DNA of 19,835 nucleotides. Source: a virus. Lineage: Duplodnaviria; Heunggongvirae; Uroviricota; Caudoviricetes. Location of the stretch: the IMG/VR virus record IMGVR_UViG_2534681832_000045; one strand, 5' to 3'. Positions 3,001 through 9,000 of the stretch are shown here, one piece after another. Within the stretch, counting starts at the first letter, position 1. The number at the start of each line of letters is the position of its first letter. A program made the position numbers.

Positions 3001-6000
3001 TGTTTGCGCATTGATGCCGAGATACGCTTCCAGTCTTCGCGGTCGTTGTCGATAACTTCATTTTTTGCCCAGCGATGGATGCTGCCGTCAATGTTTCCGG
3101 CATCCACATCACCAGGCCAGAGAGCGTAGGCCAGTTCTTCATCCAGCGTTTTCCATGTCTGCTTGTATTCGCGACAAATGGCGGCAGTGACTGGGTTGAT
3201 TTTTCCTGCTGAGTTTTCAGTGTGCTGTTGATTGACTCTGGCGCTGGCGAGATCAACAACAGACGTGTATTTTCCAGTCTCTTTGCGCTCTGCGTCCTGC
3301 CGTTTTTTCCAGTTACGTAATTCAGCCTGAATTTCGGGCCATTTGGCACCCGGATTACATTTGTGTTTAACCCATCCGATAGCGAACAGTTTGCGTTCCG
3401 GATACATAGCGTTAATTTCAGGCGTTTTCATCAGTGCTTCAACGATATGCCCGTCAAAGGTAGCAACGTCTTCCTGCAGTAATTCCTGCGCGTCAATCGC
3501 CATATCAACGGTGATGTTTTCACATGTACCGAACTTAACCAGGACCGCGTTCTGTACTTCAGGGGACAGCTTGTCAAAATTGACGTTCATCGGATCGGAT
3601 TCTGGTTCGACCGGAATAAAGGAAGCGGATTCCTCATCCCAGCGGTTTTCCTGCATATATTCAGCATCCCAGGAATCGAGGGCAGGGCGGGGTATACCAG
3701 GTTTATCCTCGCAGACAAGAAATTTATAAGCGCAGTCCTGAGCAGCCGGATAATGTTCCAGGAATTGCCAGTGAAATTTTGCGCGGGCGCGACGTTCATC
3801 ACCGGCTTCAATGGCAGTGGCTACAGCGACGGCACCTTCTTCCTTTATTGCCTGTTCGTCCGGAATGGCGGCGCAAATAAAGACTTTACTCATTTTGTTT
3901 TAACCTCATTACAGATTTCAGGGTGAACGAATCCCTGCCATTGCTGGCATTTTTAATCCGTTGGTATGGCGTTAATATGGCTGGCGGGTTATCCAGCCGG
4001 TATTTCGTTATTCAGGTTCAGCGATACTTTTTTTAACGGGAGGCATTCACCGGGGATTTTTTGTTCGTCCCTTACCTGAATGCAGGATGACTTACTGTCA
4101 TAAATTCCGGTAATCACATTTTGTGGCTCACCCGTTATAAGAAAAACGGTCATCACCAGTGCAAATGCTGAAGTCACTGCTGTTCTCCGATAATACCAAG
4201 TTCAAGAAGGGCAATTCTGGAAAGTATGGAATTATCATTGAGAAGATAAGGTTCATATTTTCTCATCTTAATGGCATCTTCCGTAAACTCCCGGTTACTG
4301 AGCAGAACACCAATATCAAAACAACCTTCAGACGTATTAACGTTTGGTAATAACGTTTCCATTATCGCGTCCTCAACAATGAATTTTGTGATGCGGTGCC
4401 TGGTGCCTCCAGGTGACGTTAACTAGTTAACAATTAACGCCGGATACAGAGAATCCACCCATAACACTGTTTTTGGTTTTAACTGTTCCGCGTGCGCTCA
4501 GCCGCATTCACCACATCACAAAATTCACTTTAAAAAGGGCGGCAGAGCAGTCACGGAGTAAAACTGATACCGCCAAACGTCACCAGAAAATTGATAACAG
4601 AGGGCGTTGCAGCGGGGTTGTCACTTAAGCGTATGGTCAACCTGACAACCCGGTGTCCTCAACGGGGAAGGAATAACCCCTCCATACTTACCGACGCGCC
4701 ATTTCGCGGATTGCCACAACCGGAAGCGCACGGTCGACGAAAATTTAACGACAGGCTATCTATGAACCAGCTACCTCGCCGTGCGCTTTCGCGTTATGGT
4801 CTGACTTTTCAGAGAAATATCCTTTCAGTAAACTGTCAGTGCCGGATGTTCACCCGTGTCCGGCGCACGCACTCCACTTCACCCGTGGAGAACTCCTTAA
4901 TTACCAACCCTCAGGAGGGTGAATGTTAAAATCAACTCTTATTGCTAAATGCCTTTATCAAAATCGCATGGTAAGCAGCATTTCAATAGGCGAGTCTGCA
5001 GTTAAAAGTATTTTCGAAGAGTACTTTCCCGGGCATGATTTTAATAAATGGAATACCAAATTACCGCCAGCAGTTTCAACGCGTATTCTGAAAGCAACCG
5101 AAAGAGCAAGTACAATTCGCGTTAACTATTTCATTAAAGATTTGTGGGATCTTTGATATCCACAGAGCCTAAAGTATGTGCATATGGATGTGCTATTATG
5201 CGCCCTCGCAGATTTGCATCATTTTCTAAATTCACTGAACGAAACAGGGCATCAACAAGGCTCTGTACAATGCAAAGGCAATCGAAGACTGTCGCCGTTT
5301 CTGTTTTGATTGATGAAAGAACATGGCCATTCACGCAAACAGAAATTACCCGTTTATTAACATCGCTTTCCTGCTTTTGATTATCAGAACCATATAGCCC
5401 AGAAAAAGCATTGCGCACATTACGAACCATATTATCGATGGTTTCTTTTTCTGCGGTACTAAGGTCAAGAGTAGCCAGTTGTGAGCGAACTATATTCGAT
5501 GCCATTTCCTGTAATGGCGTTGGTAAATCTTTAAATTCCATTATTAGCCTCGTTGGTTAGCTATTAACGTGGGTATGTAATCATTCTGGCAATGCTTAAT
5601 GCCGCTGCTTTTTCCAGATTGGTGATATCCTGCTCCAGAGCGGACAGATTTTCAGCCTGCTTAGCCCTGGCTTCATTGGCCCATTTCAGGTCCTGCACCG
5701 CCTTAATTTTCTGGTGCATCCACTCATAAAGTTCATCATCGGTATAGTCTGGCGCGATGATGACGGGGGCTCGTTTCTGCATGTCGGCTCCTTGTGGTTA
5801 GCGTTGCCTGCTTTTTAACCACGTCAGGCGAGGTGGTATCCTCTGAGGGGTCTGTTACTCGAGAGGAAATTGGTTATGAATACAATCAAGTTTTCTTGCC
5901 CAGAATGTGGTGGCTAAGTCTTTGACACATCCTTTAAGCCGCAGGGCTCTGACAGTTTCGCGGGAGCCATCTGCAAAAATTGTGGTCACCTTGTAACTGA

Positions 6001-9000
6001 AGATGAGTCCTCGCAGTTCGATGACGAAATCGTTGACAATATCTTCGGTGCACTCACCAGAGACTTTCTGAAGTAAAGGCGCATACCGCTTAGTTACCGC
6101 TCTGATAACTCTTACCTGTCCGGCAATGGCGCTGATATCAATATAAAGCGCCATCGCTGTTTCTTTGCTGATCCCTGGACGCCTTCCATTCTGATGTTTG
6201 ACTTCGCCCACTGAGAAATCCTCTGCTTCCCCTTAACGCCGGGTAGCGGAACTGTTTGCTGAGAACACCGTGCGGTGTCTTGATGAGTAGAATTTAGAAT
6301 AGCCTAAGAGTTATGGTCAAGCTTTTTGTGTAGAAAAACCTAAGCTTCTTGATGTAAAAAACACAAGTATTTGAAAGTTTGTGCTTTTTATTACAGAGAG
6401 TTGCGAAAAAAAGGGGGTTATTTATTTGCGCTTCTTTTGCGAGCTTTGAGTAGTTCTTCAAAAAGTTTGTTGAAATTCTCAACTCGAGCACGCATCTCTG
6501 ACAACAGAGCCTTTTGCTCTGACTCAGGCAGTGCGTCGAACAGTTGAAGCAACTCTTTTTGATCTTCTGTCAGATTGACTGGCTGATTATCTGGGATCGG
6601 TTCGCCTGGTTGCTTATCTTCATCTCCAAAAAGAAGCCAAGTCGGCGAGCACTGAAGCGCCTGGCTCAGTGCGAATAATCTCTTCCCCGCTGGCTGTGTT
6701 TCATCTCTTTCCCATTGAGAAATTGTTACGTGAGCCACTTTGACCAGCTTACCTAATGCGGCCTGAGACAGTTTTAATTTTTTCGCCTGTATAAGAGGCG
6801 AGCACCGAAGGTTTCGTTTTTCATATTAGGTAATTCTAATTTTTCTTGACTTAGGTTTCTCTACGATCTAGTTTCCTTAGGAAAATCTAAGGGGTTCGAT
6901 ATGTTGAAAATTGATGCTATAGCGTTTTTGGCAGCAAAACAAAGCTTGCCAATGTCGCAGGAGTTAGGCTGGCAAGCGTTGCTGCATGGGGGGAACTGGT
7001 TCCTGAAGGTCGCGCGATGCGCCTGCAAGAGGCATCCGGCGGGGAACTTCAGTACGACCCCAAAGTTTATGACGAATATCGTAAGGCAAAGCGGGCGGGG
7101 CGGTTGAACAATGAAAATCACCACTGAACAGGTTTGTGAGGCTCTGGATACCTGGGTATGCCGACCAGGAATGACACAGGAGCAGGCGACGATATTAATC
7201 ACGGAAGCATTCTGGGCTCTGAAAGAACGCCCGAACATCGATGTTCAACGCGTCACGTTTAATGATGGCGAGGTTGATCAACGGGCGCTGGGCGTTAACC
7301 GGGTGAAGATATTCGAACGCTGGAAAGCTATCGACACCAGAGATAAGCGTGACAAATTCACGGCGCTGATTCCGGCAATTATGGAGGCTATCCGGATCAG
7401 CGATTTCAGATTGTATTGTGAAATTACTGACGGAAAAAGCATTACGTACATGATCGCCGGGTTAAACAAAGAATATGGCGATGTGGTGGAGTCCGGGCTG
7501 CTTTTTGCGGATCCAGTTGTTGTGGAACGTGAGACTGACGAGCTTATAGAAAAAGCTATTGCTTTCAAGCACGCGTATCGTCAGCAATACCAATATTACT
7601 TTGCAGATAAACAAATGTCTGCCAGGGGTTCGTATGAGTATCGATGCACTACGATGGGCTAAAAAGGTGAAAACCGGCAGTTCATCCAGTAAGTCAGTAT
7701 TGACCTGGCTTGCTGATATGTGCGGTGCCGATTTGTGTGCATACCCGTCTGTATCTGCACTGGCAGAAGTAACGGAACTGAACAAAAAGACTGTGCAGGA
7801 CAGCTTACGACACCTGATGGAGATTGGGTTAATTGTTGATACCGGTGAGAGAAAAGGCAGAACAAAGCAAATTGTGGTGTACCGACTTATCGGTGTAGAA
7901 GAAAGTGTTGCCGAGCCTGAATACACCCAAAAACGGGAGTCTTTAAAGGTGGGTAAAATTGGTGCTGTTAATAAAAACAGTACCGAAAATGGTTATGTTT
8001 CAGCACAAAACAGACCCAAAAACAGAACTCTTAGCTGCATGGAAAATAACCAAAGACACCCAAATTTTCCATCAAAGACACCCAAAAACGGATCACGGAA
8101 CCCAAAGGAACCCAAAGATCTAAACCCCACACATAACGCACGCGAGAGTGCTCCGACCAGTGAGCAGGAAGTTTTGTCGTTACAGGCAGCCCCCCCTGTA
8201 TTCCTGTATGGCCTGAGCGAACCCATCGGAAAATTCCCGATGAGCGATAGCTGGTATCCGTCACGGGATTTTCGACGACGGGCTGCGTTGTGGGGGATGG
8301 CTTTGCCGGAGACAGAATTTACACCTGCTGAACTTGCCGCCTTCCGGGACTACTGGGCAGCGGAGGGGAAAGTGTTTACGCAGATTCAGTGGGAGCAGAA
8401 ATTCGCCCGTCACGTAAATCACGTCAGGGCGCAGGTTAAACCAGTCAGCAAAGGGGTAAACCATGCAGCAGCACCAGGTGGCACCGCATCACGGGCAGTT
8501 CAGGAAATTCGGGCAGCACGTGAGCAGTGGGAACGTGAAAACGGATTTATCAGCGACGGAAACGGCCTGGAAGCTGTGGGAACTCATGGGGGTGGTTTAT
8601 TCGAACCGCTGGATCCAGAAGAACGGGGCCGCACCTTCGAAGCTCTGGATTGCACAGATTGGCGCGATGACTGAGCAGCAAATCCGGCAGGTCTGCCGCC
8701 AGTGCATGGACCGCTGCCGGGCGGGTGAAACATGGCCTCCGGACCTGGCTGAGTTTGTGGCACTGATTTCGAAAAGCGGAGCCAATCCATTCGGTCTGAC
8801 GGTGGATGCTGTGATGGAGGAGTACCGCCGCTGGCGCAATGAGTCCTGGCGATACGACGGAAGTGATAAGTACCCGTGGTCTCAGCCTGTGCTGTATCAC
8901 ATTTGCCTCGAGATGCGTTCAAAGGGGATTGAGCGCCAGATGACCGAAGGGGAATTAAAACGGCTTGCAGAACGGCAACTGACGAAATGGGCAAAGCATG

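Follow-up and report, generated by a model that had tools for sequence, protein, structure and literature searches.

A Qin-like DicF–dicB module in the PPompW prophage of O111-type enterohaemorrhagic Escherichia coli

The best described relative of the locus reported here is the dicBF operon of Qin (Kim), a cryptic prophage of Escherichia coli K-12. In that strain DicA represses the promoter dicBp, and deletion of dicA results in a 22-fold induction; DicC supports a bistable switch, deletion of dicC lowering spontaneous induction; Rem is the antirepressor of DicA; and RNase E and RNase III process the transcript (PMC10448788). The transcript of ftsZ is one of the mRNAs that the small RNA (sRNA) DicF represses, and DicB is toxic in its own right (PMC5069750). 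Multiple dicF or partial dicBF loci have been described from the large and defective lambdoid prophages of enterohaemorrhagic E. coli (EHEC) O157:H7 (CP-933O, CP-933M, CP-933P and those of Sakai; PMC5069750), and EHEC can contain up to four copies of DicF, which regulates pchA and the locus of enterocyte effacement (LEE) as well as stx2 (PMC7873438). The phage mEp460_evo81 is reported to carry dicB, dicF, dicAC and rem (PMC10448788). Here we describe a dicA/dicC–DicF–dicB–ydfD module located at positions 3989-7127 of a 19,835-nucleotide stretch of Caudoviricetes DNA (IMG/VR record IMGVR_UViG_2534681832_000045, hereafter the window), which belongs to the prophage PPompW, a lambda-like element that carries no Shiga toxin (Stx) genes and was found to be defective in every strain examined (Nakamura et al. 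2021, PMC8112680). The region very probably comprises the immunity switch and the leftward early (PL-type) operon of this prophage, silent under a DicA-type repressor. The module is real but ordinary, and it is already known, since modules of this kind are widespread in E. coli, the early region is common to functional phages, and dicBF copies in several EHEC lambdoid prophages have been published (PMC5069750, PMC7873438).

The original prediction of a DicF sRNA followed by its own terminator was confirmed. Positions 4537-4589 (minus strand) are identical to K-12 dicF (b1574) at 53 of 53 nucleotides, Rfam model RF00039 is matched at 4537-4588 (minus strand) over its full length (model positions 1-52 of 52) with 76.7 bits against a gathering score of 48 (E = 1e-15), and the 3' stem-loop, followed by UUUUU, is predicted to fold as an intrinsic terminator. 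No divergence from DicF was found at the pairing region of 4537-4589, a comparison that could have failed, because two other dicB loci (L062 and L063) carry a different hairpin RNA without a DicF hit. As the PPompW RNA is identical to that of K-12, it would be expected to have the same targets, including ftsZ mRNA. DicF is located downstream of ydfC and 174 nt upstream of dicB, in a non-coding block that is comprised of the leader of the DicF precursor (4590..4909, minus strand; 96.9% identity to the Qin ydfC-dicF intergenic region), DicF itself, and the DicF-dicB spacer (4363..4536, minus strand; 98.9% identity to Qin), and that, taken as 553 nt, folds with z = -4.7. In the RefSeq annotation of the PPompW prophage DicF is missing.

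Downstream of the spacer, dicB (4174..4362, minus strand; WP_000449172.1, named dicB in O111 and O145) encodes a predicted cell-division inhibitor of 62 aa that matches the Pfam DicB model PF05358 over its full length (1-62 of 62) with 129.5 bits against 27 (E = 3.7e-38); it is 61% identical to K-12 DicB, and the divergence lies in the C-terminal half, the N-terminal half being conserved. Its stop codon is overlapped by the GTG start of a gene for a YdfD-like small protein (3989..4177, minus strand; phrog_1092), which matches Pfam DUF1482 with 56.4 bits against 25 and is 47% identical to K-12 YdfD. Both genes had been proposed from the sequence alone, and these family matches support both assignments. 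Upstream of DicF lies ydfC (5564..5782, minus strand), so named in RefSeq and encoding a product with 94% amino-acid identity to K-12 YdfC, and the first gene of the operon is a 99-aa open reading frame (ORF), orf99 (5855..6154, minus strand; WP_001240336.1; phrog_21318, E = 4.6e-67), which takes the place of ydfA and ydfB and is unrelated to both. The blastn alignment with Qin is interrupted by a 635-bp insertion (4910..5543) that separates ydfC from the DicF leader and holds a 135-aa ORF in the direction of the operon (orf135, 5134-5541, minus strand; phrog_1363) and a convergent 77-aa ORF (orf77, 4923-5156, plus strand; phrog_10348) that overlaps the former by 23 bp. No match for orf99, orf135 or orf77 was found in Pfam, NCBIfam or PADLOC, and their PHROGs are all families of unknown function. 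Apart from orf99 and this insertion, the gene order agrees with the Qin-like arrangement that had been predicted, with all module genes on the minus strand save dicC, and the predicted limits also hold, 3989 and 7127 falling exactly at the stop codons of the ydfD-like gene and of dicC.

The immunity switch consists of a DicA-type repressor gene (6418..6824, minus strand), which in the window is broken by a 1-nt contraction, and of a divergent Cro-type dicC gene (6901..7127, plus strand), which is a pseudogene. That the two form a DicA/DicC pair, as originally proposed, is borne out by the intact alleles of other genomes: the DicA-type allele of O111 11128 and O145 encodes 135 aa, matches HTH_3 with 52.7 bits and is 61.5% identical to K-12 DicA, while the product of the intact O145 dicC allele is identical to K-12 DicC at 62 of 76 positions and matches Pfam P22_Cro with 49.7 bits. 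An S24 peptidase domain was not found by Pfam in the intact DicA-type allele, and because the protein is short and has no such domain, induction would be expected to proceed via an antirepressor and not by RecA-mediated cleavage.

A PL-like promoter, the predicted homologue of dicBp, was located by promoter scan at 6320 to 6291 on the minus strand (TTGACC and TAAATT separated by 18 nt), and is followed by a 5' untranslated region (UTR; 6227-6285, 60 bp, minus strand) which displays 95% identity to the K-12 dicA-ydfA intergenic region between diverged flanks. A perfect palindrome, ACACCGCACGGTGT, is located within this conserved UTR. A motif search revealed three putative 14-bp operators (TTAGR-N4-YCTAA) in the dicA-dicC intergenic region, starting at 6826, 6851 and 6877 (span 6826..6890), and two more over the PL-like promoter (6294-6307 and 6330-6343); these are the only five matches to the motif in the whole window, all of them within the two regulatory regions. 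The K-12 equivalents are TTAGY-N4-RCTAA sites with a TTGACC -35 hexamer, and their layout of operators, -35 and -10 matches that of PPompW. The changed inner operator position, together with a DicA identity of 61%, suggests that PPompW and K-12 differ in immunity specificity (heteroimmunity).

The element itself is identified by alignment as PPompW, a lambda-like, defective, non-Stx prophage beside ompW in O111-type EHEC: an alignment of 16.3 kb with the genome of O111:H- 11128, in which ompW adjoins the integrase end of the prophage, shows 99.93% identity, and window positions 1-15464 are 99.8% identical to deposited PPompW records. It is by the same token a homologue of Qin and a different prophage, as the integrase end abuts ompW in O111 11128 and an integration between ydfJ and rspB, the Qin site, was not found there. 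In the corresponding segment of that genome (NC_013364.1, 1976000-2000000) ompW is present at the int end of the prophage, and ydfJ, which marks the Qin site of K-12, at the other end. The original prediction saw in the locus a Qin-type module placed on a backbone of the Stx-phage type, and while the backbone genes that it listed were all found (lambda-type Int and Xis, an O-like/DnaT gene, P, Q, tRNAs and NanS-p), this interpretation of them was not upheld: there are no stx genes, the element is PPompW, and the similarity to Qin extends beyond the module. The collinearity runs from ydfE to ydfU, with the exonuclease gene corresponding to ydfE and the YdaT-like gene to ydfX, and with hokD, rem and ydfU shared in the Qin order. 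Because Qin similarity continues outside the dic module, PPompW is a Qin relative in a more complete state, not a Qin cassette carried on a foreign backbone.

Two frameshifts affect the switch, and they differ in nature. In dicC a T5 run at 6925-6929, as compared with T6 in the intact O145 allele, shifts the frame at about codon 9, before the helix-turn-helix. Of the 751 complete genomes that carry the allele, 46 have exactly the window sequence around the T5 run, including the finished genome of O111:H- 11128 (annotated as 'frameshifted' in RefSeq); the dicC frameshift is a genuine, lineage-specific pseudogene. In dicA, alignment to O111 11128 and translation in three frames place a T6 run near 6778 where T7 is found elsewhere, so that the reading frame stops after codon 17. 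The repressor frameshift that had been pointed out at the outset is thus present in the sequence, but it is probably a sequencing or assembly artefact. It was found in none of the 751 complete genomes and in none of 18 metagenome contigs, while three of 36 IMG/VR contigs share it, each with other indels and one of poor quality. In addition, all indels between the window and the finished O111 genomes are contractions of runs of at least 5 bases, namely G5 for G6 at 6413, T6 for T7 at 6778, A7 for A8 at 14382, G11 for G16 at 15458 and A5 for A6 at 19251. It is its absence from the 751 complete genomes and its being one of these five homopolymer contractions that point to an assembly error; the dicA frameshift therefore says little about derepression of the operon and by itself provides no ground for inferring it. 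Two ways in which a broken dicA might be rescued were considered and rejected: the sole in-frame restart, a GTG at 6738, would yield a protein without the first 22 positions of the HTH_3 model, and efficient transcriptional slippage would need a run longer than A6. Elsewhere in the window, the contraction at 14382 splits the Q antiterminator gene, leaving an ORF (14406-14939) that covers only positions 51-217 of the Q model, and the poly-G tract (15447-15457), G11 in the window, is G13 or G16 in other sequences.

In the mechanism that we favour, the 135-aa DicA-type repressor would bind the TTAGR-N4-YCTAA operators, both the three between dicA and dicC and the two over the PL-like promoter, as its K-12 counterpart acts at dicBp, and would thereby silence a leftward operon made up of orf99, ydfC, orf135, DicF, dicB, the ydfD-like gene, the exonuclease gene, xis and int. 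Repression would be lifted as in K-12, where heat, urea and the antirepressor Rem have this effect; the window contains a homologue of rem, whose specificity for this repressor is assumed by analogy. Once transcribed, DicF would pair with its K-12 targets, ftsZ mRNA among them, and read-through of the DicF terminator would give rise to DicB, acting with MinC against the FtsZ ring and blocking ManYZ, as well as to the YdfD-like lysis peptide. The loss of dicC, the Cro analogue, would by analogy with the K-12 dicC deletion weaken the bistable switch, favour the repressed state and lower spontaneous induction. Some points weigh against this interpretation. We infer the expression, processing, operator binding and Rem specificity of the PPompW copy from K-12; the C-terminal half of dicB has only about 51% DNA identity to K-12, and the cell-division activity of this allele is a prediction; homopolymer slippage is genuine at this locus, as shown by the dicC T5 allele; and PPompW copies have been reported to accumulate inactivating mutations.

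The last two of these points are the reason why a real dicA mutation has to be considered, in which case DicA and DicC would both be inactive and the operon either constitutively on or repressed in trans by the DicA-type repressors of other prophages. The sequence as given does end DicA after codon 17, the GTG restart would be deprived of the start of HTH_3, a nearby T-run, that of dicC, bears a genuine 1-nt deletion, the T6 allele recurs in three IMG/VR contigs, and O111 genomes possess six to seven places related to the 3.4-kb region, that is, modules able to supply repressors. We nevertheless consider such a mutation improbable. The allele is absent from the complete genomes and the metagenome contigs, its IMG/VR carriers have further indels and one of them is of poor quality, and homopolymer contractions account for every indel of the window against finished O111 genomes. 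Moreover, in K-12 dicA could be deleted only in a delta-dicBF background, as induction of the operon inhibits growth (PMC10448788). As for repression in trans, this dicA allele is single-copy in most genomes (median of one place), and cross-repression by K-12-type repressors is doubtful because K-12-type operators differ at the specificity position.

It is slightly less probable again that the module is a decaying, unexpressed remnant, whose intact parts were kept by recent descent or by gene conversion from other copies. PPompW is indeed defective (PMC8112680), the window having no genes for lysis or morphogenesis and a tail-fibre C-terminus right next to nanS-p; dicC is a pseudogene; and with a median of two and up to ten copies of the DicF block per E. 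coli genome, possible donors for conversion are at hand. Several points speak against decay of the operon itself. No lesion is seen in the promoter hexamers, the 5' UTR, any of the five operators, DicF or its terminator, and the dicB and ydfD-like reading frames are uninterrupted, the start codon of the latter overlapping the stop codon of the former; O111, O145 and further lineages have kept the same alleles; and in K-12 even the more degraded Qin expresses a dicBF operon that works (PMC10448788). An immunity switch and PL-type operon under a DicA-type repressor remains our preferred interpretation of the region. The main value of the comparison lies in correct annotation, DicF being missing from RefSeq here and dicC being a genuine O111-lineage pseudogene, which by analogy with K-12 should bias the switch towards repression. 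The role in division inhibition that had been given for DicF and DicB agrees with the literature, in which both are established prophage regulators that act on cell division, metabolism and phage resistance and, in the case of EHEC, on virulence as well.

The non-coding block around DicF, taken as 547 nt, is present in 4744 of 5426 complete E. coli genomes, with a median of two copies per genome and a maximum of ten. Its 97-100% identity to Qin might be taken as a sign of exceptional purifying selection, which was not upheld: across E. coli the identity of the block ranges from 60% to 100%, and because of this range ordinary lambdoid mosaic exchange suffices to account for the contrast in identity between the block and its flanking genes. 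For the DicF-dicB spacer (4330-4539, minus strand) Rfam reports a similarity to the family STnc100 that stays below the threshold (38 bits, gathering score 47, E about 6e-7), and a full STnc100 match (100.8 bits) is found at 16152-16324 (plus strand), between the tRNA cluster and nanS-p; STnc100/PasD has been reported next to esterase genes (bioRxiv 10.64898/2026.05.13.724894). The central hairpins of the spacer and of this full match are related by one compensatory change (CCUGG...CCAGG and CCGGG...CCCGG, respectively). Copies of the spacer with about 80% identity precede two genes elsewhere, kilR of a Rac-type prophage and a plasmid gene for an SPFH-domain protein, and related copies were located in loci L060 (1508-1694), L061 (1501-1621), L062 (1824-1972) and L063 (2440-2594). 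The position occupied by DicF is itself variable. In the dicB loci L062 (about 1790-1850) and L063 (about 2400-2460) the leader and spacer are conserved around a different terminator hairpin, at which no DicF was found by Rfam, while the Rac-type locus L060 has a weak DicF-like match (39 bits) at 1451-1506, upstream of kilR. It is conceivable, though on balance doubtful, that the block of about 550 nt holds a second functional RNA in its STnc100/PasD-like spacer. If so, the spacer could be a portable leader for the translation of, or terminator read-through into, prophage 'moron' genes, including two unrelated division inhibitors.

At the distal end of the leftward operon lie a lambda-type integrase gene (1..1131, minus strand; Pfam Arm-DNA-bind_1 and Phage_integrase), an excisionase gene (1109..1357, minus strand; Pfam Exc, RefSeq 'excisionase') and a gene for an 823-aa exonuclease (1422..3893, minus strand; Pfam Rv2179c-like 3'-5' exoribonuclease domain), which is the intact counterpart of the Qin pseudogene ydfE, to which positions 3127-3893 show 87% DNA identity. 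On the other side of the switch, a YdaT/CII-like gene (7111..7662, plus strand; Pfam YdaT_toxin; phrog_163, CII-like) encodes a protein of which the first 93 aa are equivalent to the product of ydfX, a truncated gene of Qin, with 83 identical residues over the 96-aa YdfX. The replication and late-control genes comprise an O-like/DnaT gene, P, RusA and Q. The rem homologue (12223..12483, plus strand), whose product is 73% identical to K-12 Rem (E = 2e-40), adjoins hokD as it does in Qin. Control of rem by the SOS response through a LexA box (CTGT-N8-ACAG) was considered and rejected: the sole match, at 7965-7980, lies inside the O-like gene and not near rem, and a match is at chance level (33 of 200 shuffles). 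Directly upstream of rem, in an arrangement matching that of Qin, lies a type I toxin-antitoxin pair (11703-12005, plus strand) made up of hokD (Pfam HOK_GEF) and the antisense RNA sok (Rfam, 103.9 bits). Early-right cargo includes the gene for the AcfC-family adhesin Paa (10756-11514, plus strand), upstream of which a degraded fimbrial-protein pseudogene is found at about 10060-10600.

In the late region, the interval from Q and the tRNAs to nanS-p, at which stx is located in Stx phages, has no stxAB genes and is taken up by a DUF3927 gene and a TerB-family pseudogene; for the ORF scanned in it (15796-16296, minus strand) no Pfam or NCBIfam match was obtained. ARAGORN calls three tRNAs at 15135-15375 (plus strand), with anticodons CAT, TTT and TCT, while Rfam and RefSeq call only two; the CAT tRNA is a tRNA-Ile in RefSeq, and tRNA-Lys(TTT) at 15212-15287 is called by ARAGORN only. 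The nanS-p gene (16462-18541) encodes DUF1737, SASA and DUF6645 domains, and an extra A at 17318 puts its two parts in different frames. Compared with O111:H8 strain 8234 it has a patch of 30 substitutions at 16818-17148, and 85 bp at 18225 are missing from the window; in most O111 genomes, and not in the window, IS1203 is inserted at the nanS-p region. Because nanS-p gives way almost at once to a tail-fibre C-terminus, genes for lysis and morphogenesis are absent from the window.

Among described systems, the dicAC-dicBF region of Qin is the closest. The two share the order dicC, divergent dicA, PL-like promoter, ydfC, DicF, dicB, ydfD and ydfE, the layout of promoter and operators, and rem, hokD and ydfU downstream in equal order, and their identity falls from 100% in DicF and 97-99% in its leader and spacer to 94% in YdfC, about 82% in DicC and about 61% in DicA and DicB. 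PPompW differs from Qin in its integration on the ompW side (ydfJ-rspB for Qin), in having orf99 for ydfA and ydfB and the 635-bp orf135/orf77 insertion, in its TTAGR-N4-YCTAA operators (TTAGY-N4-RCTAA in Qin), in its intact exonuclease, xis, int and full-length YdaT-like genes, and in its dicC pseudogene. With PPompW as published (PMC8112680) the window agrees in carrying the Paa adhesin gene, in being defective and in the recombination with the prophage at ydfJ, while it departs from the deposited records past the poly-G tract at 15458, where their match ends and the window follows the O111 version. The dicBF copies of EHEC O157:H7 resemble the present one by their published description, the PPompW copy being that of an O111-type strain. 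Segments of the early region are about 90% identical to those of the temperate phages mEp460_ev081, Evi, PhiR42_1 and HannyBb, which are complete phages, in contrast to the window prophage with its missing lysis and morphogenesis genes. More distantly, the locus resembles the PL-operon immunity regions of lambda and P22 (cI, cro, kil) and the racR-kilR region of Rac: in each, divergent genes for a repressor and a Cro-type protein have a set of operators in common, another set lies over PL, and the PL operon includes a division inhibitor directed at FtsZ. The inhibitors are, however, unrelated proteins, and the DicA of PPompW is short and has no S24 peptidase domain. In the Rac-type locus, moreover, kilR is preceded by the leader element found here and by a DicF-like RNA.

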